36,057 bases of DNA. Origin: a virus (taxonomy: Duplodnaviria > Caudoviricetes). Made by a program: the position numbers and the translations under genes. The DNA is taken from the IMG/VR virus record IMGVR_UViG_3300032212_000687, positions 1 through 36,057 of that record, one strand, 5' to 3'. Under the pieces are notes generated by a model that was not told the origin of the DNA, searched no databases, and worked only from the letters and a program-made list of their open reading frames with translations. Position 1 is the stretch's first letter. Each line of letters opens with the position of its first letter. Shown piece by piece: positions 1 to 20,226 of this stretch.

Positions 1-450
1 TTATACCTTCACGAGCTCAAAGTGTGGCAGATCATCAAAACTTTGATCTTCAAACTCTTTATCCGCATCCCAATCGCCGCCCCATCTTATCTTATGTGTG
101 ATTTTTCCTTCTTCGTATAAGTCCTCTACAGCTTGAAAAAAATACCCTGCCATCAGGTAGAATCTTGCCTTTGCTTTATGGGTGTCCTTGAAATCTATGG
201 GATACGGGGCCGCGTCAACCGCTTTTGACTTTGGATCATCTTCTGTTACTTGGTGTTTTGATCTTTCTTTGATTCCATCGAGTGTTGTCTTTGGCGGCAC
301 TGCATTAAAATATTCTTGTTGCTTTGCAAGTGTTCTTGCCCCTTCCAGTATTGAGATATCAAAACTCTCAACCACCCGGTTACAAATAGCAATGATGTCA
401 TCATGGCAAGTATCAAGTTTGCTCTGTGACTTTGTTCCGAAACTAGGCAT
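1..450 (-). CDS. Endolysin, peptidase M15 (L-Ala-D-Glu peptidase-like)
   Basis: EGART..KQ, SKH, AVDAAPYP, IRWGGDW and DLPHFEL motifs; likely start at MPSFG (450) rather than 459. Confidence 0.9.
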   Translation of the reverse strand: MPSFGTKSQSKLDTCHDDIIAICNRVVESFDISILEGARTLAKQQEYFNAVPPKTTLDGIKERSKHQVTEDDPKSKAVDAAPYPIDFKDTHKAKARFYLMAGYFFQAVEDLYEEGKITHKIRWGGDWDADKEFEDQSFDDLPHFELVKV

Positions 451-991
451 GACCAACACCTTTTTTATCTTTTATCTTAGATCCGATACTTGAACCAAAG
501 AAGAAGTTAACGATTGCTTGACGTTCATTAAACAAGTTTGCTATCGCTACACCTATAATATTGCTCGCAATTGCAATCAAAGAAGGCTTATCGCTCATAA
601 AATAAACCAAGGAAACATTGACGATTACCAGCAACCCGATAATAGGCAGGTTCCTATCTATTATCTGTTTTGCTACACTGTCAGCCATTCCATGATTTAC
701 CTGATATGTTTCATGAGCCTTGCTTCTGTTTGCCTCATCATGACGATTCTCTTCTTTTACAGATTCAAATTCCAACTGAAGCTTTTTGAAGTCCAAGTTC
801 TGAATTTCCAACTTATACGTATTGATTTTATTGACTTCTTCTGGCGTTAGGTCCTTGGGTTTTTTCTTTGATAGATCGATGCCCGTAACTTTTTTAATGC
901 CTTCTTTTACTAAGTCTTCGCCATTGTCCATGATTAAGTCTTTTACAAAACCCAATCCCATACTGACAAGTGCTGCTCCTATTCCTATCAT
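443..991 (-). CDS. Holin-like membrane protein (3TM-type)
   Basis: Hydrophobic N-terminus, two C-terminal TM segments, NFFFGSS motif, next to endolysin. Confidence 0.65.
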   Translation of the reverse strand: MIGIGAALVSMGLGFVKDLIMDNGEDLVKEGIKKVTGIDLSKKKPKDLTPEEVNKINTYKLEIQNLDFKKLQLEFESVKEENRHDEANRSKAHETYQVNHGMADSVAKQIIDRNLPIIGLLVIVNVSLVYFMSDKPSLIAIASNIIGVAIANLFNERQAIVNFFFGSSIGSKIKDKKGVGHA

Positions 992-1335
992 TTAATCTCC
1001 TTTTCTTTAATATTAATCTCTACGATACTTTTGCCTGAGACAAAGGTACGTGCCAGATTTAGTCCATACCCTCCTGCCATGCCAGCTGATCCGCAAGTGA
1101 AACCGATAAGAGGATCAGGAAGAGCGTAATAAATACATAGATAGTAAGTCATCATCCCTACGAAACCTGATGTACTTGTGTCATAGGCTAGTTCTACCCA
1201 TCTGAATCTTTTCAACTCCCCTTTTTTAATGCGGCGAAAGTTATGAATTATCCCGCCTGCAACAGATATAATAAGTACCCAAAGGTTCTTGAAGATATCA
1301 AACAGTCCTGTGTATGTGTTAGGGTCTTTTTCCAC
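988..1335 (-). CDS. Phage holin (LydA-like)
   Basis: MEKDP start, about three hydrophobic segments, first gene of lysis cassette, GTG start after AAGGA. Confidence 0.7.
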   Translation of the reverse strand: MEKDPNTYTGLFDIFKNLWVLIISVAGGIIHNFRRIKKGELKRFRWVELAYDTSTSGFVGMMTYYLCIYYALPDPLIGFTCGSAGMAGGYGLNLARTFVSGKSIVEINIKEKEIK

Positions 1336-1412: not shown

Positions 1413-1430
1413 AAAAAGGGATTCATCCCT
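1413..1430 (-). terminator. Possible weak intrinsic terminator after the tail operon
   Basis: Minus strand AGGGA-TGAA-TCCCT followed by TTTT, at the stop of the 1040-aa gene. Confidence 0.4.
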
Positions 1431-4400
1431 AACCTACCTTGCTAACTATTCCAGATCCATTAGCTGTGAACCCTTTGACATTGCTTGCCATAGTTCCTAA
1501 TGATGCAGTAAATATCTTGTTATAAAACCATAAATCAAAATGCCAGGCATTATTTTCTGATCTTAATCTCCAATGCACTACATCTTTTCTCCATGCAGGA
1601 GCAAACCTGTCATGGTTTAACTCTATAGTTGGGAATACATAACTATAATCTACCCCGTCAATATTCCACCTAAGCCTAAAATTACCATTTGCGGAAAAGT
1701 CAGAGTATGTAGTAAGATCCAAATAATTTCCATCAGCTGTAGCTTCAAACGTTAATGACATAGAATTTAATTGAGACATAACATCTACATTAAAAGATAA
1801 AACTGTAATCTCTCCATTGGTTGCTTGTTGACTCCCCCACATCGGAGAGAACACACCATCAATCGAGTTATTTCCAGAGATAGGCTCATTAAATATTGCT
1901 GTTAAAATATCTGAAGATTTACCACCTTCCGGCACAATAACTCCATGTAAGTGGTTTTTAGTAATTTGCATAGCTCCGACAAGAAGTCTTGTACCACTTC
2001 CGTAGTGTCTAATGTATGATCTTACTTTTCCAGTAAACCCTGTATGCACTTGCACCGGAACCGAATACACATGCCATCCATTATCTGGAGGCACAGAATA
2101 TCCAAGCCTAACCTTTCGCATTGGCTCTCCCCAATCCCCAACATAGATCGATGGCCTAATGTATGCGTTTATACCGCTTGTAGGGTCAAGTCTTCTTACT
2201 GCCATAGTTGCAACATATACTTCTCCTGATATTGCAGAAAATACAGAATTTGGCCTAATGTAACCCCATCTTACATCATTTGTTTTTCTTCTTGACACAT
2301 AATCGGAGCTTGTGTCAATAACATATACATCACTATTAAAATCTGATGTTGTATTCCCTCCCCCGATTAGCAGAAGTTCTTCTGATACGGGGTTTAATGC
2401 TAACAGTGGCAATTTCTTATCAGGTGGGGGTATTGTCACAGTGTTCCCGTCTTCATCTACAAAACTGTCCAGTTCATATGTAACATTTTCCCATTGTGAT
2501 AATGTTAAATCGTATGCATAAGGTGCTAAATAATCAGGAGTAGTAGTTGACCCTGCGCACCCTCCAAAAATATAAATTTTATTGTCTGTTGCGCTATATA
2601 CAGCTGAAGCTTGCCGTCTTGAAAACTGCATAGGTATATATGATGATACTGAGCTTATTAAGTTGTATTTATACACACTTAATAGTGTTGTTGACCCGGT
2701 CCATCCCCCTATCACCCATATATCGTCTCCAACAATTACCGTCGAGTGCCATCCTCTAGCCGAAAAAAAATCGTCTATCCCATTTGTTTTCTTTAGTACG
2801 GTCTCCGACCATGTAGCGATATCTATAATTAGTGTTTCTGAACGATACCCTACGCTAGTTCTTCCTCCGGTTATTACCAGTTTTCCATTCCAGTAATTCA
2901 TCCTATGACGGTTTAACCCTTCTCCATAGAATGCAACCGTATGAGCTAGTTCCCAGGAATTTGTTTCGATTCCACTAATCAGTATTTTGTATATCTTATC
3001 TTGGTAAACGCCGTTATATCCACCAAATGCATATATGTATGTACCATCATTTACTATTTGAATACCTTTTGCCGCATAGGGAAGACTTGGTAAACTGATC
3101 TGTACTAATGAAGGCTTGTAAATACCAAACATATTGTCTCCAATGGCTGGAGGTGGCGGTGGCTGAAGTTCTTCTGCATAAAATTTTGAACTATATCCTA
3201 GCTGTGTTTCTCCCCCTGCTGTAAAAATATATCCCTTGCTATCTAGCAAAGGATCATAATGAACAGTTACCCCACCATTGTTAAATGCATAAGGCCAACT
3301 AGACGAATCAGGTCTGTTTATTACTATTGATGTTTCTGTATAGTGTGGATTTGGAAGTACATTGTTTTGCACAGCTAAATTATTATAATTAAACCAAGGA
3401 GGTCTGTTATCAGTAAAATTCCATGCTTGTGTAAAGTGAGAATTATTATTAACTACTTCCGCACTTAGTATTTCAGGAGCACAAACAATACCTACTCGTT
3501 CCGCTGCTAAAGTATCTCTGGCGGACATAACTACTCCGGTTATTGCATCTAAAACGGATGTTCCGCCAACACCCACGTTTTCGTTATGAGTGTACTCAAA
3601 CTGTCCTGACCACGCATCAGGTCGAAACTCTCTTCTTAATGCATAGCTAATGTATGGCTTTCTGCTTGATCTCCGCTCTACTGGAGTAGGCTGTGCATTT
3701 GCTATTGTAAACTGTGTATTCCAATCTCGTTTTTCCATTATTGATTTCATATAAAGATAAGATGCTCTCTGCTGCTTATAGGCTCTTATATCTCCATCCC
3801 ATATCTGATCGGTTAAGAACCCATATGTAGTCCTAGAAAACCATCCATGAATATCCAAAAAAGATATTATTCTTGATTTTCTATCAATAGTTAAAAAATT
3901 ATCTGTGTTCTTATTTTCAATTTCTGAAAGTGCTGATACTCCTTTATCGGGGTCAGCTGAATAATCCCAAAAATACCCCCAATTTCTATTTAAATTTATA
4001 TTGTTTGCATTGCGTCTTTCATTTATCATAAATCCATCTGGGTTAGGTATCGCTATCCAAAATAGCGATATATTATTACGCATCCATACGGATAGTTCAT
4101 CTGTGCTTGACAAGTAGTGATTAATGAATTCTATAACCCCATGATAAGAATGATTTTCCCCGCCATGCGTAGCGGTATGCAAGCAAACTATAGGTTTATT
4201 ACCATCATCGTTTATTCTTAGTGTTCCCATCTCAAGAGCACTTGGCAGTACCGTACCTCCAGCAATACGAGAAGCATCCTCATAAATAACATTTGTATTT
4301 GCCGTGTCTAAGGCTTTAAGGCTTGCTACTACATCCGCATATGTTGGCCTGATTGTTGTGTCATTAAGTGTTGATACATAGGGCAATACGTCTTGAAAAG

Positions 4401-4551
4401 CCATTGGCGATTCTTGAACTCGTTCATAGCATGGCTCATTTACTTGAACTTCTTTGTACTGCATAGTAAGAGCTGTTGAGCTTCTGCTTAATGACCAAGA
4501 TACAGGGTAGTCTTTCAACTTGTCAGACTTTGAAACATCCTTTAGTGTCAT
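1429..4551 (-). CDS. Tail-tip/receptor-binding protein with M14 zinc-carboxypeptidase domain and Kelch beta-propeller
   Basis: HGGE, NPDG, RRNANNINLNRNW and DIHG M14 motifs; six hydrophobic-GG Kelch motifs; last gene of tail operon. Confidence 0.8.
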   Translation of the reverse strand: MTLKDVSKSDKLKDYPVSWSLSRSSTALTMQYKEVQVNEPCYERVQESPMAFQDVLPYVSTLNDTTIRPTYADVVASLKALDTANTNVIYEDASRIAGGTVLPSALEMGTLRINDDGNKPIVCLHTATHGGENHSYHGVIEFINHYLSSTDELSVWMRNNISLFWIAIPNPDGFMINERRNANNINLNRNWGYFWDYSADPDKGVSALSEIENKNTDNFLTIDRKSRIISFLDIHGWFSRTTYGFLTDQIWDGDIRAYKQQRASYLYMKSIMEKRDWNTQFTIANAQPTPVERRSSRKPYISYALRREFRPDAWSGQFEYTHNENVGVGGTSVLDAITGVVMSARDTLAAERVGIVCAPEILSAEVVNNNSHFTQAWNFTDNRPPWFNYNNLAVQNNVLPNPHYTETSIVINRPDSSSWPYAFNNGGVTVHYDPLLDSKGYIFTAGGETQLGYSSKFYAEELQPPPPPAIGDNMFGIYKPSLVQISLPSLPYAAKGIQIVNDGTYIYAFGGYNGVYQDKIYKILISGIETNSWELAHTVAFYGEGLNRHRMNYWNGKLVITGGRTSVGYRSETLIIDIATWSETVLKKTNGIDDFFSARGWHSTVIVGDDIWVIGGWTGSTTLLSVYKYNLISSVSSYIPMQFSRRQASAVYSATDNKIYIFGGCAGSTTTPDYLAPYAYDLTLSQWENVTYELDSFVDEDGNTVTIPPPDKKLPLLALNPVSEELLLIGGGNTTSDFNSDVYVIDTSSDYVSRRKTNDVRWGYIRPNSVFSAISGEVYVATMAVRRLDPTSGINAYIRPSIYVGDWGEPMRKVRLGYSVPPDNGWHVYSVPVQVHTGFTGKVRSYIRHYGSGTRLLVGAMQITKNHLHGVIVPEGGKSSDILTAIFNEPISGNNSIDGVFSPMWGSQQATNGEITVLSFNVDVMSQLNSMSLTFEATADGNYLDLTTYSDFSANGNFRLRWNIDGVDYSYVFPTIELNHDRFAPAWRKDVVHWRLRSENNAWHFDLWFYNKIFTASLGTMASNVKGFTANGSGIVSKVG

Positions 4552-4949
4552 ACAGCAAACCCACCGTTACCTTTTACGCCATACCATTTAGTATGACCGC
4601 CAAAGGACATTAAAGTGAATGTAGATACGGTATTGGCTCTCAGGTCTGGGATGCCGGCATCTCCCCAATCTATATTTGTACTGAACCCAACTGCATGAGC
4701 ACCCGGGGATACAAAAAAAACTGCCTTGATAGTAGTAGTTTGGAGTGTTGCCGGTGGGGCCGATACATCAAGCGTAGCATCTCCTGATACTGTGATATTC
4801 CACAATCCTGTTTTATCTACGGCTACAGGCGTATTGCCTATAATACCTGTAAGGCTTGTTACAAACAAAAATAACTCTTTGAACTGATCATTAATTTTGG
4901 TTCGGATAGAACCGAGTGATTCTTTGTCCGCATAAGGGGTATATGGCAT
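4548..4949 (-). CDS. Tail fibre/tip-associated protein
   Basis: SLGSIRTKINDQFKEL motif typical of tail appendage proteins; beta-rich C-terminus; position. Confidence 0.55.
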   Translation of the reverse strand: MPYTPYADKESLGSIRTKINDQFKELFLFVTSLTGIIGNTPVAVDKTGLWNITVSGDATLDVSAPPATLQTTTIKAVFFVSPGAHAVGFSTNIDWGDAGIPDLRANTVSTFTLMSFGGHTKWYGVKGNGGFAV

Positions 4950-4958
4950 GTTTTATCC

Positions 4959-5429
4959 TTATATTATTTGCGTGTAATTTAAAATGACTGTTACTGGGTC
5001 ATTCAGAGTATATGCTTTAATCCTGATGTTAGTACCTGTAGATAATATCATTCCTGAAGCTGCCACAGTCTTCCAAACACCATCTGAATATAATTCTACT
5101 TCATTAAAACCACCTCCGTTTCCGTCATGTCTGTAAAATATAAGTCCGGTTACAGCAACAGTTTTATAAGCAATACCAGATGTTGATGTTACTGATTCAG
5201 ATCCGCTTGATCCAAGTATATAATTCATTTTAGATTGTGAGATTGAAGCATTAGCCAATTTTGCATTAGTTACGTTAAAATCTGCAATTGCTGCAGTTTT
5301 TATTTTTGGTGCGCCTAGGGCACCTTCACTTATTGCAATAGGGTTTGACGCAAGGGATTCCATTAAAGCTTGTGTAATCGGAGACTCAGCATCTAAATCA
5401 CTATTTGGAATATTTGTATAGGTTGCCAT
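4959..5429 (-). CDS. Short tail fibre-like protein
   Basis: IADFNVTNAKLANASIS fibre-type repeats; position. Confidence 0.55.
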   Translation of the reverse strand: MATYTNIPNSDLDAESPITQALMESLASNPIAISEGALGAPKIKTAAIADFNVTNAKLANASISQSKMNYILGSSGSESVTSTSGIAYKTVAVTGLIFYRHDGNGGGFNEVELYSDGVWKTVAASGMILSTGTNIRIKAYTLNDPVTVILNYTQII

Positions 5430-5665: not shown

Positions 5666-7471
5666 TTATATGATTTTATAGGATTCGCTGCCATCTGAAA
5701 ATATCCCGCTGTTCGGCGATATAAAAGCCATAACCCTCTTTTGTTCGTCCGTTGCTGCTGAATAATCAGGTGTGACATTTGGTGCGATATACCCATACCT
5801 AACATCCAGGGCAAACCCCGAAGTCATAGCGGTAATCTGGTGCTCTTGCCCAATTTTGTTCTCTTTAACTTCTGTTACGTGATATCGACTTGCTAGGCTG
5901 GCCCCCGTCTTATCTAACACTAGACGCGTGGATATATCCAAGAAATTTCCCGTATTAATATCACTGTCTTTCGCATCTACCTTCAAAGTTATGATTCTGG
6001 GCGTATCTTTACTCATAAGCATGTATCTGTCAGCCGTTACCGATGCGTGTGAATCAGATGTGTACCATCGAGATTTGATTTTCTTAATGCGCTTGTCGCC
6101 GTATTGGTCCGCACCCTCTTTATCGAGTTCGGCTTTTATGTATAGGGTGCTGTAATCGTCTTCGTCTTTAACTTCGGCCCAGTTTTTAACCCCGTAATAA
6201 ACCCACAATTCGCTGTATCTTTTTGAGTTGTCGTTTTTAATCCTCACAGAGTTTTCAAGGATGTGTGAATCTTCATTTATAGACTTAACCAGCTCCCCCT
6301 GCTGAGGCGGTGCAATTACTCTAAGCTTAATCTTTTGTGCGAGTTCATCCCACCAAAATAGGATAAGCGATTGCTCGGTCAATTCTTCTATTAAATCCTG
6401 AACGCCTGTAGGCTTGGAAAGGACCGTGTAGTAAGTCTTTAGTGACAACCAGTTCTCTTTTTCTGTATCCCACTCGTCTTTGTTTAACGGGTCATTGTTA
6501 TAAGGTATATATTTGGGATCAATATTGGCATAGTTAACAAGCAGATCATAGATAATATCTACTACGTTTACATTATAAACCTTGCAGAGTTGAACGCTAT
6601 CATCTGCAGTATGGGATTCGGCCGTCGTGCCGTAACCGTTTCTAGTGATTCCCGATATCACATCACCTGTGAGGGTTGTGTAGTCCATAATCTCTTTACC
6701 TATTCTTATCGTTCCGCTTGTTGTGTATTCAGAACCTATACCGGCAGGTAGAAGAGTTAATGATGTTGCAATATCGGTCAAGTCTGCAGAAAGAACACCG
6801 CTGCTTGGGCTCGGGCATTGTGAGCGCTTATTGTCTATCTTTTTAAGTATATCAAGCGCGGTTATCTTTACAATCCCGTTTGCGTCTATGTCAATACTAC
6901 TAATGATGTATTCTCTTGTGTTCAAGTTTGATAAGAAGTCTGTAGTATCGTTCCATATTGCAGCATCGTCCCATAAAGTAGCATCATTCCACAAGCTTTC
7001 CACTCCTGTGTAGCCTGTTCTAACTCTTATAGTACGCCCGTTGTAATATGAGTTTCTAGCTATAAGTTTCCCGAAGAAAGTACCCTGTGTTGTGTCGTAT
7101 GCTCTTTGTGACTGATAAGGGTCTATGCCTCTATCGTGATGGTTGAAATCTTGTAGCGTGATAGACACTTTACTTCGGTATGCCAGACCCTCACCGAAAG
7201 TTAGTTTAGTAGGGGAATAGCTCACAGATTTAACACATGGGTACATGATCTCGCCGATGGGTATGTTTGCTTCCTGATCTATCATTCTGTATGTTTTAGT
7301 TGTCTTAGTATAATTTACGGAATCTTTACAGGTAGTAAGCGTGTTGTAACACGGTTCACCTGTTGCACTACAGGGCGAAGCTCCAAATCCCAAAGAACAG
7401 TAATCAAGATCTAGTTCGACTACTACAGTAGGTTCTCGGCCTAGCATCTTTTTCTCAGTATCGTAACTCAT
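5666..7471 (-). CDS. Tail tip/baseplate hub protein
   Basis: About 600 aa, after distal tail gene; N-terminal 4-Cys cluster; likely start MSYDTEKK overlapping the upstream stop. Confidence 0.65.
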   Translation of the reverse strand: MSYDTEKKMLGREPTVVVELDLDYCSLGFGASPCSATGEPCYNTLTTCKDSVNYTKTTKTYRMIDQEANIPIGEIMYPCVKSVSYSPTKLTFGEGLAYRSKVSITLQDFNHHDRGIDPYQSQRAYDTTQGTFFGKLIARNSYYNGRTIRVRTGYTGVESLWNDATLWDDAAIWNDTTDFLSNLNTREYIISSIDIDANGIVKITALDILKKIDNKRSQCPSPSSGVLSADLTDIATSLTLLPAGIGSEYTTSGTIRIGKEIMDYTTLTGDVISGITRNGYGTTAESHTADDSVQLCKVYNVNVVDIIYDLLVNYANIDPKYIPYNNDPLNKDEWDTEKENWLSLKTYYTVLSKPTGVQDLIEELTEQSLILFWWDELAQKIKLRVIAPPQQGELVKSINEDSHILENSVRIKNDNSKRYSELWVYYGVKNWAEVKDEDDYSTLYIKAELDKEGADQYGDKRIKKIKSRWYTSDSHASVTADRYMLMSKDTPRIITLKVDAKDSDINTGNFLDISTRLVLDKTGASLASRYHVTEVKENKIGQEHQITAMTSGFALDVRYGYIAPNVTPDYSAATDEQKRVMAFISPNSGIFSDGSESYKII

Positions 7472-8232
7472 AGCTCGTGCCATGCCTCGACTGACAGGCT
7501 TATGCTCATATACATAGAATCTGAGTAAACGGGAGGAGATATCTTTTTACTAGTTGTACAAAATACGGCCTCATCTGGATAATCAACATGGTTCCAAGAG
7601 AAAAAGAATGGTTTAGCCTCTGCATGTTTTAGGAACGGCATCCAAGATGACCTGACCCATGCAGGAGTCACATACTTAGCCTTAATAGTGCTACCGTTTG
7701 ATTTTCTTATTAGGGATCGTCCTAGAAGTAATCCTGAATCGCTTTTATTGTTAACGTAGTCGCTTTGCGTTCCCATGTGTGGAGGAATAAACCCTGACGG
7801 CAATCCATTTTCCATCTGCATAGATTTACCTATTGATACTATACCGATCATAGGCAAAGCAGAAGGTGCAACTATCTCTATTCTAAAAATCTGTTTTGTT
7901 ACCTCCGAAAACTTCTCAAATATAACCCGTCCATTGTCAGAAGTTAAAGCCGTAGTAGCATCAATCCAATTCCCTAACCCTGTATTATCATATTGAAGTT
8001 TTACAGTTGCCCCGGACTTGCCTAAATCATGTGAGAATATTGCAAAATAATCTACTTCTTTAGCTACACCTATATCAATGTTTATATAGTTAGTGCCTAA
8101 TGTTGAAGGCGAATACCAATCGTACGGAAGCCAATCAGCAATATTAGCCGCTTCAAAGCCTATTGATTCACTTGTAGCAGTGATAGATGCATTTTCTAAT
8201 ATATTGTCGTACCCGAACAGCGATAAACTCAT
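7468..8232 (-). CDS. Distal tail protein-like
   Basis: Directly after tape measure; discoidin-like N-half; PFFFSW C-terminal motif. Confidence 0.6.
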   Translation of the reverse strand: MSLSLFGYDNILENASITATSESIGFEAANIADWLPYDWYSPSTLGTNYINIDIGVAKEVDYFAIFSHDLGKSGATVKLQYDNTGLGNWIDATTALTSDNGRVIFEKFSEVTKQIFRIEIVAPSALPMIGIVSIGKSMQMENGLPSGFIPPHMGTQSDYVNNKSDSGLLLGRSLIRKSNGSTIKAKYVTPAWVRSSWMPFLKHAEAKPFFFSWNHVDYPDEAVFCTTSKKISPPVYSDSMYMSISLSVEAWHEL

Positions 8233-10241
8233 CCTATTTGTATCCTTAAACCATCTCCGATTTCTTCATTAAGTATTTCCGCTAACCTTCTGACTGCATT
8301 AGTTTCAGTAAATATTGAATCTCCCATATTAATGTTGATTGTTTTTTGGTTTACAAGCTCGCTTGTGCTGTCATCGTGATATTCTGAGCCGATTCCGATA
8401 TCAGAAGGTATTTGTCCACCAGTTGTTGAATACCCACCGGTAATTGATGGGGTAGAAGTAGATCCTCCTCCTCCAAAAGATGCACTTGCTATCGAAGATA
8501 TTTGTGCTGCTCCGGCTGCTGCTTGAAGTCCTGCCATTGCAACAGACAGTGGAAAAGGATAGTTCTCCATAGTTTTCATGATTGATGCTGGTAACTGGAT
8601 AGCTGCATTAGCAAGAGCTGCTGCTTTGTTGATCTTAAACATTGTCTTATTACTGTTTGCCATGCCAGATGTGACTTGCTGAAGATCTCCTAAGACTTGT
8701 TTAGTTTGTTCAAACCCAGTTTTATCAGAAAACTTTTGGCGTTCAGTGAGTCCTTTTTTATTAAGATCCGTTATCTTGTTTTGGTAATCCTGCTCCAGGG
8801 CTAACAATAAAGCTTTATGATCCTGTTCTGTTATCAGCTTATTTTGAAACGCCTCGTCTGCCAGCGCAATGTCATTCTCAGCTTTAATGGCCAAGGTTTC
8901 ATCTTCTGTCATTAGTGACTCTTGAAGAGCCTCCGCTTTTCTTGCAAGGGTCTCAATATATCTATCAACTTCTAATTGTGCTTTTTCATCTGCTTTACTT
9001 GTGTCTTCTTCATCATTTGCATTTGTGTACTCACCATCAATGCCACTAGATCCACCTTCTCCACCTTGATTTTCTGAAAGGTTTGTGTTGAATGCGTTAA
9101 TGAACTCGCTTGCTTTTTCTCTTCCATTGGTTAATGAATTAGTAAGGCTTTCAATTTTTGCCTCACTATCAGCTATGAAAGTATCAAATGCTTCTGCCCC
9201 GTTTGCATCAAACAACTCTATCTTGTTTGTGCCTGTAACATCTGCCATCATGTTATAGACTTCAATAAAGCTGTTTATTCTGTCTATCATAAAGTCAATA
9301 ACTTCTCTTATAGACTGAGACATGTGCAAGAAACCCAACTCAATATTAGCAGTAACAAGTTGAACACCGGTCCATGAGTCAGCCACAAACCCTGCCCCAT
9401 TTGCTAGTGATGTAACAACATTAGCTGATACACTTCCAAAGTTATTCATCTTTTCTTCTGCTGAAGCTCCGAACATCTGGTCATACATTTCAAGGGCTGC
9501 CGAACTTGCCGCTTCCATTGCAGGCAACATTGAGTAAGACACAACTCTTCCTGCTCCTTCAAAACGTGCAGACAATTGATCTATACTGTCATGATAAGAT
9601 GCCGCCATCATTGCAACACTATTAGGAATCACTATTCCTATTCTTTCAGCTTCTTCACCTAGCCTTTGTATCTCTTCGGTTCCCATATTTGCAATGCCAA
9701 GGACACCAACCGCACTCTTTGAGAATAAATCTTGAGCGATTGCTGTCTTTTGGAACCCGTCAGGCATTTCAGCTAATCTAGCGACTAGGATTTCAAAGGT
9801 TTTTTCTGTGCTTGTAAAGTTTTCTCTTGCGAACTCTGCACTGATTCCAAGTTCCCCAAGTGCCTTTGCTGCGGCTCCTCCTCCGTTTCTTACGAAGTTA
9901 TTTGTCCTTCTGATCATTGCACCCATAGCAGAGTTTAACTCTGTGTTGCTTACTCCTGCCATGCTTGCTGCATATTGGTATTTGGAAAGCTGCTCGGTTG
10001 ATATTGCCATTTTTTCAGCCATCTTACTTGTGGCATCTGCAACATCAATCGAATCGCTTACCATTTCATTAAACTTTGCAACAGTAGCAAAAGAGACATA
10101 AGCAGCACCAAGAGAAAGGATGGCACCCTTCATCTTATCGACTGACTTTTTCATATTAGCTTGGGCTGAAGTCATGCCCTTGACTAACTGTGCTGTGTCG
10201 GCTTTAACATCAATAAGTACAGTGCCTATGGTTTTACTCAT
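8229..10241 (-). CDS. Tail tape measure protein
   Basis: 670 aa, Ala-rich and helical; IGTVLIDVKADT N-terminus; follows chaperones. Confidence 0.92.
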   Translation of the reverse strand: MSKTIGTVLIDVKADTAQLVKGMTSAQANMKKSVDKMKGAILSLGAAYVSFATVAKFNEMVSDSIDVADATSKMAEKMAISTEQLSKYQYAASMAGVSNTELNSAMGAMIRRTNNFVRNGGGAAAKALGELGISAEFARENFTSTEKTFEILVARLAEMPDGFQKTAIAQDLFSKSAVGVLGIANMGTEEIQRLGEEAERIGIVIPNSVAMMAASYHDSIDQLSARFEGAGRVVSYSMLPAMEAASSAALEMYDQMFGASAEEKMNNFGSVSANVVTSLANGAGFVADSWTGVQLVTANIELGFLHMSQSIREVIDFMIDRINSFIEVYNMMADVTGTNKIELFDANGAEAFDTFIADSEAKIESLTNSLTNGREKASEFINAFNTNLSENQGGEGGSSGIDGEYTNANDEEDTSKADEKAQLEVDRYIETLARKAEALQESLMTEDETLAIKAENDIALADEAFQNKLITEQDHKALLLALEQDYQNKITDLNKKGLTERQKFSDKTGFEQTKQVLGDLQQVTSGMANSNKTMFKINKAAALANAAIQLPASIMKTMENYPFPLSVAMAGLQAAAGAAQISSIASASFGGGGSTSTPSITGGYSTTGGQIPSDIGIGSEYHDDSTSELVNQKTININMGDSIFTETNAVRRLAEILNEEIGDGLRIQIG

Positions 10242-16941: not shown

Positions 16942-17952
16942 ATGAAGTATCTTTATCTATTATTAAGCTGGAGTTTTGGCATCTTTTTTGTTGCGTTATC
17001 TTTAGCTACAGCAATGAGTTCTATACCTGCTTCTATTGCATATTTACTAATAGCGTTATTCCTTCTTCCTCCATCTCGTAAGTTTGCATATTCAAAAACT
17101 AAAAAAGAAGTTCCTATTAAAGCTAGAGGGATTATAATTACTTCCCTAGCAATAGCTTCTTTATTTCTACTAGGAATGAGTGACGAAATAAGAAAAGAAG
17201 AAATGAGAACACAAGCAGACAAGGAAAGAGCCGAAAAAATAGCTTTTGCCAGGCAAAAGAACATAGATTATTTCAACCAACATTCCTCAAGTATACTAGA
17301 AGAAATTAAAACTGCGATAGCGGATAAGAAGTTCAATAAAGTTTTACAGCTTTCCTCGAAATACTTACCTTCCAATAATAAAGAACTCTCAAGTCTTCAT
17401 AGTAAAGCTACATTAGAATTAAAAATAATCGCTGATGCCAAGAAAGAAGCAGATGCCAAAGCTGAAAGAATTAAGAAGACTAAAGATATTTTAGCAATTC
17501 TGAAAAGGATACCATCTTCACAATATAAAGACAACATGGGACTATACAAAAAGCTTGTCGCTTACAACCCTAACAATAAAAAATATAAAGAAAAACTTGA
17601 GTACTACTCTAAAAAAGTACAAAAACAAGAAATAGAAGAACAAGCAAAGCAGGAAAAAGTCAAAGCTGAGCGAGCAGCTAGAATTGCTAAATTCGGTGAG
17701 GCCCCGATAAGGAGCGCATGGGATGGTTCTTATTCGGCTGTAGAAAGATACTTAGAAAAAGTTGCAAACGATCCTGATAGCATAAAGGTTGATAACTGCA
17801 CAGGCGTATCATACACGAAGAAAGGATGGCTAGTTGGATGTGATTACAGAGGGAGGAATGGATTTGGTGGGATGGTAAAACAATCTAACTGGTTTACTAT
17901 CGCACACAACAGAGTTATTAAAGTTGACGAGGCTTCGGCCTATCGAAATTAA
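16942..17952 (+). CDS. Membrane-anchored accessory (moron) protein, function unknown
   Basis: About three N-terminal TM segments, Lys-rich helical stalk, C-terminal YRGRNGFGG domain; antisense to late operon. Confidence 0.8.
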   Translation: MKYLYLLLSWSFGIFFVALSLATAMSSIPASIAYLLIALFLLPPSRKFAYSKTKKEVPIKARGIIITSLAIASLFLLGMSDEIRKEEMRTQADKERAEKIAFARQKNIDYFNQHSSSILEEIKTAIADKKFNKVLQLSSKYLPSNNKELSSLHSKATLELKIIADAKKEADAKAERIKKTKDILAILKRIPSSQYKDNMGLYKKLVAYNPNNKKYKEKLEYYSKKVQKQEIEEQAKQEKVKAERAARIAKFGEAPIRSAWDGSYSAVERYLEKVANDPDSIKVDNCTGVSYTKKGWLVGCDYRGRNGFGGMVKQSNWFTIAHNRVIKVDEASAYRN

Positions 17953-17963
17953 CCTAGTCATAT

Positions 17964-19643
17964 TTAAATGGTTCTAATCCCTCTGTCCTCATAAACAGAT
18001 GGTGTATCTTTCTTGCTCACCATCTGAATACCCAAGGCCATTGCCAAAGCCACCATTCCATCAACCTTCTCACTCGACTTAGACTTATCAATCTTTATAT
18101 TGTCGGCCGGGTCACGTTTAATCGCTACATTGCTCATCATCCAGGTAAGCACGGGATTGTTCCCATGATTAAGCTTTTTTTGCAACACTAACGTTTCGAT
18201 CTCTTTAGTTGGATTTGACATTGAAGCAAAGCCTTGTCCGAATGGTATCAACTCAGTCACACCTTCCTCATCTAAGCGTGTAACTAAACTTGATGAGTTC
18301 CATCTATCATAGGCCAATTGTTTAACGTCAAACTTCTCACAATCTTTTTTTATTTGATCTTCAATAAAAGCATAATCAATCACGTTTCCTTCAGTTGTCT
18401 GTATCCAACCATCACGGACCCATGTTGAATAAGGAACCTTATCGCGTCTTTCTCGTTCTCTCATGTTATCTTCAGGTATCCAAAACCTGCATAACACATC
18501 GTATTCATTATTTTCTTTTGGAAATACTTGAACCCATGCTGTAATGTCTGTTGTAGAAGATAGATCTAGCCCACCGAAAGAAATTTTCCCACGCAACTTT
18601 TCTTTCTCAATCTTATATTTGAATGACTCTTCCCATTTATTAGTTTTTATCCAGGTATCTGCCTTATCACACCACACGTTTAAATGTTTTGTTTTAAATG
18701 CTATTAATGAAGCCTCTGAATTTTCAGCAGTTGCTATTTTTCCTTCCATATATGAGTATGTAGGACTTGCCCCTAAATTTGGATTTGCTTTTTTCCAAAC
18801 CTCTTCTTTTTTCCAAAAGTCATCGTCTTCCATATCTTCTTCATCAGGCTCAAATAATACGCTGTAAAACCTATCATCTTTGATGATCCCTTTTTGAATG
18901 TTTTTAGCATAAGAATAAATATCAAGATAAAAAAAACCTTGCGTGTTATATCCTGCTGTTGACAAGTGAATCTCTAATGGTTCATTCCTCCCTGCTAATC
19001 CATCGGTCATAATTTGGTATAAGTCTTTTGATACGTGTGCATGGCCTTCATCTACTGTTAAAAAGCTTGGCCTTAGTCCGTCTTTTGTATCGGCTGAACT
19101 TGTCAGAGATTGGAACTCATCTATAAAAGCACCATCTTCTTTTGTCACTTTCGGGGGCTTTACAGTATGCTTTATAGTATTATAAAGATCATCTTCTTGC
19201 TTTAGCATTGTTAAGAATACCTTATGAATAATTTTTGCCTGCTCCACTTCTGTTGCAATACTGTACTGTTCTTTTGCCTTATCCTTGTCTATAAAGAATA
19301 TTATTGCATGGAGTAACCCTGCGAACTCTGATTTCCCGTTCTTCTTGGGTATAAAGAATAGAGCTTTTTGGTATCTTCTTAAATCTTTATGCCTCCCTTT
19401 TGCAAACTTAGTTCCAAATATATCAATAATCGAATATAGTTGCCAATCTTGGAACTGAAAATTCACCCCTGCAAACTCACCGGATGTATGTTTTAACAAA
19501 GACGAAAATTTGACACACTTCAAAGACAACTTTCCATCTAAATAGTATTCAGTTCCTGTCAGGTTCTTTGTTTGTTTATCAATGTAATCCTCTGCTAGTT
19601 TCCAATAATACTCTGGAGGGCTAAACTTTCTCTTATTTGTCAT
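17964..19643 (-). CDS. terL: Terminase large subunit
   Basis: Walker A IPKKNGKS, Walker B LTVDEGH, nuclease motifs GLDLSSTTD and KVDGMVAL. Confidence 0.97.
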   Translation of the reverse strand: MTNKRKFSPPEYYWKLAEDYIDKQTKNLTGTEYYLDGKLSLKCVKFSSLLKHTSGEFAGVNFQFQDWQLYSIIDIFGTKFAKGRHKDLRRYQKALFFIPKKNGKSEFAGLLHAIIFFIDKDKAKEQYSIATEVEQAKIIHKVFLTMLKQEDDLYNTIKHTVKPPKVTKEDGAFIDEFQSLTSSADTKDGLRPSFLTVDEGHAHVSKDLYQIMTDGLAGRNEPLEIHLSTAGYNTQGFFYLDIYSYAKNIQKGIIKDDRFYSVLFEPDEEDMEDDDFWKKEEVWKKANPNLGASPTYSYMEGKIATAENSEASLIAFKTKHLNVWCDKADTWIKTNKWEESFKYKIEKEKLRGKISFGGLDLSSTTDITAWVQVFPKENNEYDVLCRFWIPEDNMRERERRDKVPYSTWVRDGWIQTTEGNVIDYAFIEDQIKKDCEKFDVKQLAYDRWNSSSLVTRLDEEGVTELIPFGQGFASMSNPTKEIETLVLQKKLNHGNNPVLTWMMSNVAIKRDPADNIKIDKSKSSEKVDGMVALAMALGIQMVSKKDTPSVYEDRGIRTI

Positions 19644-20226
19644 TCAAAATATCCATTATTGATGTTTTATCTTTAGTTGGCTTAGCATCAAGCTTTGTTC
19701 TGCTCAAAGGGTTCAGTCCTAACCTATCCATATACATGAGCATTTGCTTCTCATGATGTTGCATTACTTTAAAATGCGGGTGGAGTGTTGACGTTCCGCT
19801 ATCATTTACGGATATACAATCGACTGAAGATGAAGCGTATAAGTATCGTTGATACATTTGTGCATTGAGAGCATACAATACTAATATCTGTCTGTCACAC
19901 TCTTCGAAAAATCCAAGATTATTTAAGTCTTTTGTGGCCTCAGCAAGATATTGATATCCTACTGCATCAAGATTTCTTGAATCAGATATATTTGTAATTT
20001 CTTCATGCACCTCTTTTGGCAATTCAATTGACTTTTTTTCTTTGGGCTCCAAACCTCTTCGCATTCTACCGTCCTCAACAGAAGGGACAAGTGCAGCAAC
20101 TTCATGTTCATCATAGTAAGCCCTGCGTCCTTTCTTTGTTTTTGTTAGCTTTCCATCTTGGGCATATCTTGATAGTGCCATCTTAGAGCAACCTAGTATT
20201 TCTAGTGTCTCTTTATGGGTATGCAT
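19633..20226 (-). CDS. terS: Terminase small subunit (P27-like) with N-terminal HTH
   Basis: HPHF..M and LGLNPLSR C-terminal motifs; N-terminal ETLEILGCSKMALSRY HTH. Confidence 0.88.
   Translation of the reverse strand: MHTHKETLEILGCSKMALSRYAQDGKLTKTKKGRRAYYDEHEVAALVPSVEDGRMRRGLEPKEKKSIELPKEVHEEITNISDSRNLDAVGYQYLAEATKDLNNLGFFEECDRQILVLYALNAQMYQRYLYASSSVDCISVNDSGTSTLHPHFKVMQHHEKQMLMYMDRLGLNPLSRTKLDAKPTKDKTSIMDILNDK

Follow-up and report, generated by a model that had tools for sequence, protein, structure and literature searches.

The stretch of DNA examined here, 36,057 nucleotides of a virus of the class Caudoviricetes (IMG/VR record IMGVR_UViG_3300032212_000687; hereinafter, the window), carries at positions 1429–4551 of the minus strand a gene for a 1040-amino acid (aa) protein that combines a zinc peptidase domain of the M14 family with a Kelch propeller, which raises the question of where such an enzyme acts and what it cuts. 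A sequence-only reading of the window proposed a tail-tip enzyme-adhesin that clips amino-acid or acyl decorations, a poly-amino-acid capsule or murein peptides, with the propeller binding the receptor. The answer that we tentatively prefer is a virion enzyme docked on the tip of a fiber. It would attach to an anionic polymer of the host surface and cleave amide bonds of acyl amino acids there, a poly-gamma-glutamate-like capsule being the most likely target.

The protein matches Pfam Peptidase_M14 (E 3.6e-12; 46.9 bits, cut-off 21.6) and Kelch (E 2.6e-21), both above the cut-off. An AlphaFold2 model built from a 40-row alignment (predicted local distance difference test score, pLDDT, 88.4; predicted template modeling score 0.82) was compared with 48,161 solved chains; an earlier model from 4 sequences (pLDDT 41.5) was unusable, and the Foldseek search started with it returned Kelch only. 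The comparison identifies carboxypeptidases A/B over aa 60–350 (Z 23.8–24.2, root-mean-square deviation 2.4–2.6 Å) and Kelch domains over aa 416–748 (Z 34.1). The M14 domain, aa 60–348 (3508..4374, this and the following segments on the minus strand), has the alpha/beta fold of carboxypeptidase A (Z 24.2), and the six blades, with their GG pairs at 446–7, 510–1, 562–3, 615–6, 663–4 and 730–1, close into a propeller (Z 34) at aa 416–756 (2284..3306).

The model thus contains the two domains named in the sequence-only reading, with a complete zinc site, together with beta domains that it had missed: about 400 residues (aa 1–59, 349–415 and 757–1040) lie outside both. The N-terminal segment, aa 1–59 (4375..4551), consists of a low-confidence tail (1–11) and a short stretch of beta structure in which an F/S-x-R-x-S motif is partly conserved, and is likely the docking end of the enzyme. 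The beta strands of aa 349–415 (3307..3507; conserved N368, N370, W377, R383 and P384) and those of aa 757–880 (1912..2283) appear to form a single beta-sandwich interrupted by the propeller, followed by an all-beta C-terminal domain without a family match, aa 881–1040 (1432..1911). In the second half of the putative sandwich, five arginines and four tyrosines (R766, Y797, R799, R812, Y818, R844, Y846, R848 and Y850) are conserved at 85% or more across the family and could line a polyanion-binding face, whereas the conserved residues of the propeller are mostly structural Gly, Trp and Tyr. The proposal that the propeller binds the receptor is therefore not supported, and the Arg/Tyr-rich sandwich seems to be the better candidate. 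CBM_4_9 and LamG look-alikes of the flanking beta domains were detected in Atlas at 0.83–0.86, below 0.9, and serve as a lead only; the same applies to a presumed resemblance to the RcGTA head-spike fiber, for which a PDB sequence search gave no match.

All the M14 motifs noted earlier are intact, namely HGGE (129–132), NPDG (170–173), R179–N181, NLNRNW (186–191) and DIHG (233–236), and to these the catalytic Glu319 can be added. The zinc ligands are H129, E132 and H235 (His69, Glu72 and His196 in carboxypeptidase numbering), accompanied by R179 and the Asn-Arg pair N188–R189. Conservation was counted over 41 aligned family sequences (25–60% identity), for each site among the sequences covering it. 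H129 and E132 are kept in 38/38, and R179, H235 and E319 in 39/39; of 39 sequences, 38 have N188 and 37 have R189. A family-specific motif, E292-x2-S295-x-R297-K298-P299-Y300, is nearly as stable (E292 in 36, S295 in 37, K298 in 33, P299 in 35 and Y300 in 37 of 39). Because the zinc ligands and the catalytic Arg and Glu are invariant, selection is predicted to maintain the family as an enzyme, one of those that recognize a free alpha-carboxylate, and the window protein itself is almost certainly active.

Assignment to known M14-like groups was attempted as well. The profile of the MpaA murein tripeptide amidases, NCBIfam NF007897, scores 11.8 bits against a cut-off of 157. In Csd4/Pgp1 the first zinc ligand is Gln, as opposed to His129 in all 38 covering sequences of the present family. 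The AstE/AspA profile PF24827 does not match the window protein at E 0.1 and gives partial matches (E 1e-6 to 1e-8) in some relatives. The enzyme does not belong with PghP/PghL (M86): where the present family keeps Arg/Asn/Arg, hydrolases of the PghP type have His/Thr/Ser, according to the available part of PMC6506827.

A phmmer search of 1.84 billion representatives retrieves 40 proteins with E-values of at most 1e-30, including some fragments, and a single full-length member, from Pseudoalteromonas phage J2-1 (ATN93378), was found among 50,697 annotated phage records; the same protein is the top viral match in the structure search. Single-protein scans with the window protein found no further loci in viral contigs or in genomes, and two of the 10 loci from a pattern scan (L011 and L013) were dropped, having no tblastn match. 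The M14-Kelch family is rare, comprising about 40 distantly related clusters. Both domains are matched in 32 of the 36 relatives scanned, with three of the others truncated and one retaining the motifs without a Pfam match. In a FastTree phylogeny of 101 M14 domains, drawn midpoint-rooted, the 40 Kelch-linked domains group together on one side of a branch with support 94. The nearest relative, 60% identical and accompanied by an adaptor domain 51% identical to that of the window, is encoded in a 347-kb viral contig, implying that the module has been exchanged between very different phages. The family probably extends past the 40 clusters, as indicated by P0087, a distant 973-aa member that has the FSRAS motif in its N-terminal part and matches M14 and, less clearly, Kelch. 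Kelch propellers also occur on other fibers: the 1282-aa protein P0005 combines a tail-collar domain with many Kelch repeats and lacks M14.

The virion location is supported, first, by gene fusion. In 11 of the 37 relatives scanned, the enzyme is fused to a virion structural domain: six are of the megatron type (PF13550+PF23666), and one each is a phrog_11439 hub, a tail tube, a minor tail, a virion structural and a tail protein, and these fusions are scattered across the M14 tree. At the six megatron loci, the module fills the slot of the RcGTA peripheral domain (aa 230–744 as given in the available text of PMC7296036), and the RcGTA gene order DUF2460, hub, NlpC/P60, megatron is kept in the three scanned. 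P0026 belongs to the hub family of the window phage itself, its hub sequence being interrupted between residues ~62 and ~65 by the complete enzyme module, and P0004 carries a tail-tube domain at the N-terminus. Second, at five of the six stand-alone loci (the window, L001, L012/L016, L015 and L021/L023), the upstream gene overlaps the start of the enzyme gene and ends in the same ~85-aa tail-fiber C-terminal domain. In the window, this gene encodes a putative fiber-tip adaptor of 133 aa (4548..4949, minus strand; its stop overlaps the start codon of the enzyme gene) that resembles the T4 gp9/10 N-terminus and phiTE_241_C proteins with scores of 0.93–0.95. A search with the adaptor profile against PDB found no match, and a homolog search returned only the adaptor itself; a predicted complex of three adaptor domains with aa 1–60 of the enzyme scored 0.01, which is evidence neither for nor against docking.

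Given the structural fusions and the overlap with a fiber-domain gene at the stand-alone loci, the enzyme is very probably a virion component, in agreement with the virion association claimed from the sequence, and docking through the 133-aa adaptor in the window phage is favored to a lesser degree. A different possibility, that in the window phage the protein is a late soluble enzyme freed at lysis to clear capsule, as PghP is, or a lysis helper, could be suggested by the lysis or membrane genes that adjoin the enzyme gene in the window, L001, L021 and possibly J2-1. This is very unlikely considering not only the fusions and the fiber-domain coupling, but also that the window phage has its own endolysin and that L012/L016, L015 and L024 lie inside head, neck or tail modules. 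The designation "tail tip" is reasonable for the window phage, judging from the position of the gene, and for the megatrons. It does not appear to hold for the whole family because two adaptor-bearing loci (L012/L016 and L015) are located among head and neck genes. The gene order in a P22-like podovirus, where the M14-Kelch gene directly follows the head-closure gene, is a further argument for the virion location. Several megatron loci also contain, just upstream of the fused gene, a separate gene of ~200 aa that duplicates the megatron N-terminus (L005:7890-8573, L008:8166-8771, L019:6782-7402).

As for the substrate, the active site, as read from its residues, must require acyl-NH-CH(R)-COO-, an acyl-amino-acid amide with a free carboxylate. 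Three surface candidates would fit, poly-gamma-glutamate, amino-acid amides of uronic acids and murein peptides, so that the list drawn up from the sequence remains the right one, with the evidence tilting toward a poly-amino-acid capsule and away from murein. Conservation of the E292-S295-K298-P299-Y300 motif, and of the nine Arg/Tyr positions in the beta-sandwich, extends over the three identified host groups, Campylobacterota, Magnetococcales and Pseudoalteromonas, all Gram-negative, which suggests a single simple anionic substrate. That this substrate is an extracellular anionic polymer seems probable; that it is specifically polyglutamate-like is a tentative proposition.

Such conservation would also fit murein, and a virion murein-peptide hydrolase could help the tail through the cell wall, like MpaA, which is specific for the gamma-D-Glu-diaminopimelate bond. 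There is weak similarity to MpaA (E 0.085 for the window protein and 0.0057 for P0003), and the C-terminus of the T5 tape measure has a zinc carboxypeptidase motif with muralytic activity reported in the available part of bioRxiv 2022.09.20.507954. The position of the module on the particle makes murein the least favored of the three surface candidates: a large globular module at a peripheral baseplate, tail-tube or head/neck site would not be expected to reach the Gram-negative periplasm. The megatron loci already have an NlpC/P60 peptidase and, with the MpaA profile score far below its cut-off, a role in murein cleavage is improbable. About equally improbable is a virion enzyme that trims C-terminal residues off surface-layer proteins, a pilus or a matrix rich in peptides while the propeller grips the peptide. 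The nearest solved folds are indeed digestive carboxypeptidases A/B (Z 24, against 20–21 for bacterial M14 proteins) and peptide-binding Kelch domains, but a single cut per protein end would presumably bring little penetration, and the conservation of the propeller is mostly structural.

A more serious competitor, although still doubtful, is a virion enzyme-adhesin that would do as an amidase what the G7C tailspike does as a deacetylase: it would strip the amino acids attached through amide bonds to uronic acids in the O-antigen or capsule, without cutting the backbone. Such decorations are N-acyl amino acids with a free carboxylate, as R179, N188 and R189 would demand, and the hosts are all Gram-negative, the group in whose glycans Ala, Ser, Thr, Lys, Gly and Glu amides are documented (available part of PMC10609480). 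Decoration-removing spikes are proven, as far as the accessible portions of PMC10743462 and PMC13123978 go, and the CBM/LamG look-alikes would be in keeping with glycan binding as a lead. Strain-variable decorations predict variable specificity loops and binding faces, however, whereas those of the present family are strongly conserved across the three host groups.

Under the preferred reading, the product of the overlapping upstream gene would dock the enzyme on the fiber tip, on the exterior of the particle. In catalysis, R189 and N188 would bind the residue following the scissile bond by its free alpha-carboxylate, with R179 and zinc polarizing the carbonyl and E319 activating water; each gamma-glutamyl bond would offer a free carboxylate of the required kind. 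The Arg/Tyr face of the beta-sandwich might hold the particle in place while a path is cut toward the outer membrane, as proposed for esterase tailspikes.

The only host feature tested was the presence of capsule genes in a single Magnetococcales genome (G001), which carries the M14-Kelch enzyme in a megatron. This genome contains a long PgsB-like gene (E 1.3e-52) and CapC domains above the cut-off. Within the order, PgsB-like genes were detected in 3 of 56 genomes, and within a sample of the phylum in 5 of 151 (2/55 and 4/150 without G001), whereas the M14-Kelch enzyme was found in one of the 56, G001 itself. In a separate observation, a Gram-negative gene cluster comprises a ~1400-aa HEAT + PgsB-like gene and a ~1100-aa double-CapC gene (L026:4437-8870, L027:8466-11792, L028:669-18883), which lie together in G044. 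A plasmid search with the PgsB-like domain returned 79 Bacillus records and one Streptomyces record, none from the relevant hosts.

Several observations weigh against a fiber-docked polyglutamate hydrolase. The co-occurrence with PgsB/CapC comes from one genome and has a probability of about 3–5% by chance, and the PgsB-like gene of G001 is below the family cut-off (179 against 222.7 bits) and three times the length of PgsB. The known phage polyglutamate hydrolases differ in the His/Thr/Ser set described above; the S1' pocket is predicted to be basic from sequence position; and the beta-sandwich region (aa 349–415 and 757–1040) has no significant family, PHROG or PDB sequence match. The J2-1 enzyme gene stands alone without an upstream adaptor gene and adjoins terminase, and no proteomics or activity data were found for any family member. 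A broader proposition, which we regard as speculative, is that the four domains constitute a mobile module of the virion, which sipho-, myo-, podo- and jumbo phages have repeatedly acquired on their baseplates, tail tubes, fiber tips and heads. This module would be the first virion-bound M14 depolymerase, and its presence would mark Gram-negative hosts (the three groups named above) with a polyglutamate-type capsule not described so far, the product of long PgsB/CapC-like synthases.

By gene content, the window is a temperate HK97-type siphovirus, a prophage. The terminase, portal, capsid, neck, tube, tape measure and lysis genes are on the minus strand, and the repressor, recombination genes and integrase are at the opposite end. 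The same DNA is found within a 172-kb contig in which bacterial genes follow the endolysin; two of these fall in 90% clusters with named members of Sulfurovum and Sulfurimonas, so that the host is likely a Campylobacterota bacterium. The enzyme gene is the final one ahead of the holin (988..1335) and is preceded by those for the tape measure (8229..10241), a 605-aa hub or central tail protein (5666..7483; phrog_11439) and two small tail proteins, i.e., the adaptor and a 156-aa short tail-fiber-like protein (4959..5429; phrog_28766, a weak match with E 0.0015). The separate endolysin is encoded at 1..459 (phrog_465, E 6.5e-28; all on the minus strand). Three further genes are of note: a 182-aa membrane-type gene between holin and endolysin (443–991, minus strand; phrog_1544, no function assigned); a moron-like plus-strand gene of 336 aa (16942–17952) that lies in a low-GC stretch, with terminase and portal on either side in the other orientation, and has weak matches only, to function-less families; and the small terminase (19633–20226, minus strand), with an excisionase-like helix-turn-helix at the N-terminus.

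If the preferred reading is correct, a virion-bound zinc amidase would be a new chemistry for crossing bacterial surface barriers; to our knowledge, every receptor-binding enzyme characterized so far is a glycan hydrolase, a lyase or an esterase. It would also represent a new monomer-type architecture of enzyme, propeller and beta-sandwich that plugs into unrelated virion positions. It would give a function to the numerous M14 tail proteins that have yet to be studied, and could be a pointer to capsules of the polyglutamate-like kind among Gram-negative lineages.

The statement that no characterized phage receptor-binding protein has this architecture stands insofar as no M14-Kelch phage protein was found in the full-text literature searched, where subscription journals are thinly covered. 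It has to be qualified in that Kelch-less M14 domains are common on phage tail, neck-passage or baseplate-type proteins (e.g., L018:5392-7266, L017:5408-7687 and P0049-P0154), at least 11 of the 42 scanned also matching structural PHROGs; these are known from annotations, with no study found in the same literature. They would lower the surprise of M14 on a tail, not that of the M14-Kelch combination. Among them, the phrog_4722 "zinc carboxypeptidase" tail/neck proteins of Staphylococcus phages IME1318_01 (ARM67809) and BUCT702 (UNY50238) likewise have M14 in a gene at the receptor-binding position, but lack Kelch, form a separate branch of the M14 tree and are uncharacterized in the literature searched.

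The metallocarboxypeptidases A/B (PDB 1jqg, 1kwm and 7eqx) share with the window protein the fold, the HxxE...H zinc site and the equivalents of Arg127, Asn144, Arg145 and Glu270; the phage-encoded protein, 15–20% identical to them, differs by the lack of a propeptide, the ERxSRKPY motif, and the additional propeller and beta domains. PghP/PghL share the phage origin, a carboxypeptidase-like zinc fold and the proposed substrate, but are single-domain proteins of ~200 aa with a Z score of 8.9 to carboxypeptidase A, as described in the available part of PMC6506827, and with the different residue set. The esterase tailspikes (G7C gp63.1 and the SGNH receptor-binding proteins; accessible portions of PMC10743462 and PMC13123978) are likewise non-glycanase enzyme-adhesins acting on a host surface polymer, but are serine esterases specific for O-acetyl groups, as opposed to a predicted zinc amidase, and have no domain in common with it. 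The N-terminal, central and fiber-binding parts of the RcGTA megatron Rcc01698 are kept in six relatives, in which the M14-Kelch module replaces the peripheral domain, whereas the window protein is a stand-alone one. Finally, the "Kelch motif family protein" of phage J2-1, a myovirus whose large terminase is annotated as two pieces around an HNH endonuclease (L004:7705-10211), is a full-length homolog (25% identity over 96%) with intact catalytic residues. Its annotation omits the M14 domain, and no functional study of it was found in the literature searched; J2-1 is a cultured phage with a cultured host, in which both the virion location and the substrate are directly testable.

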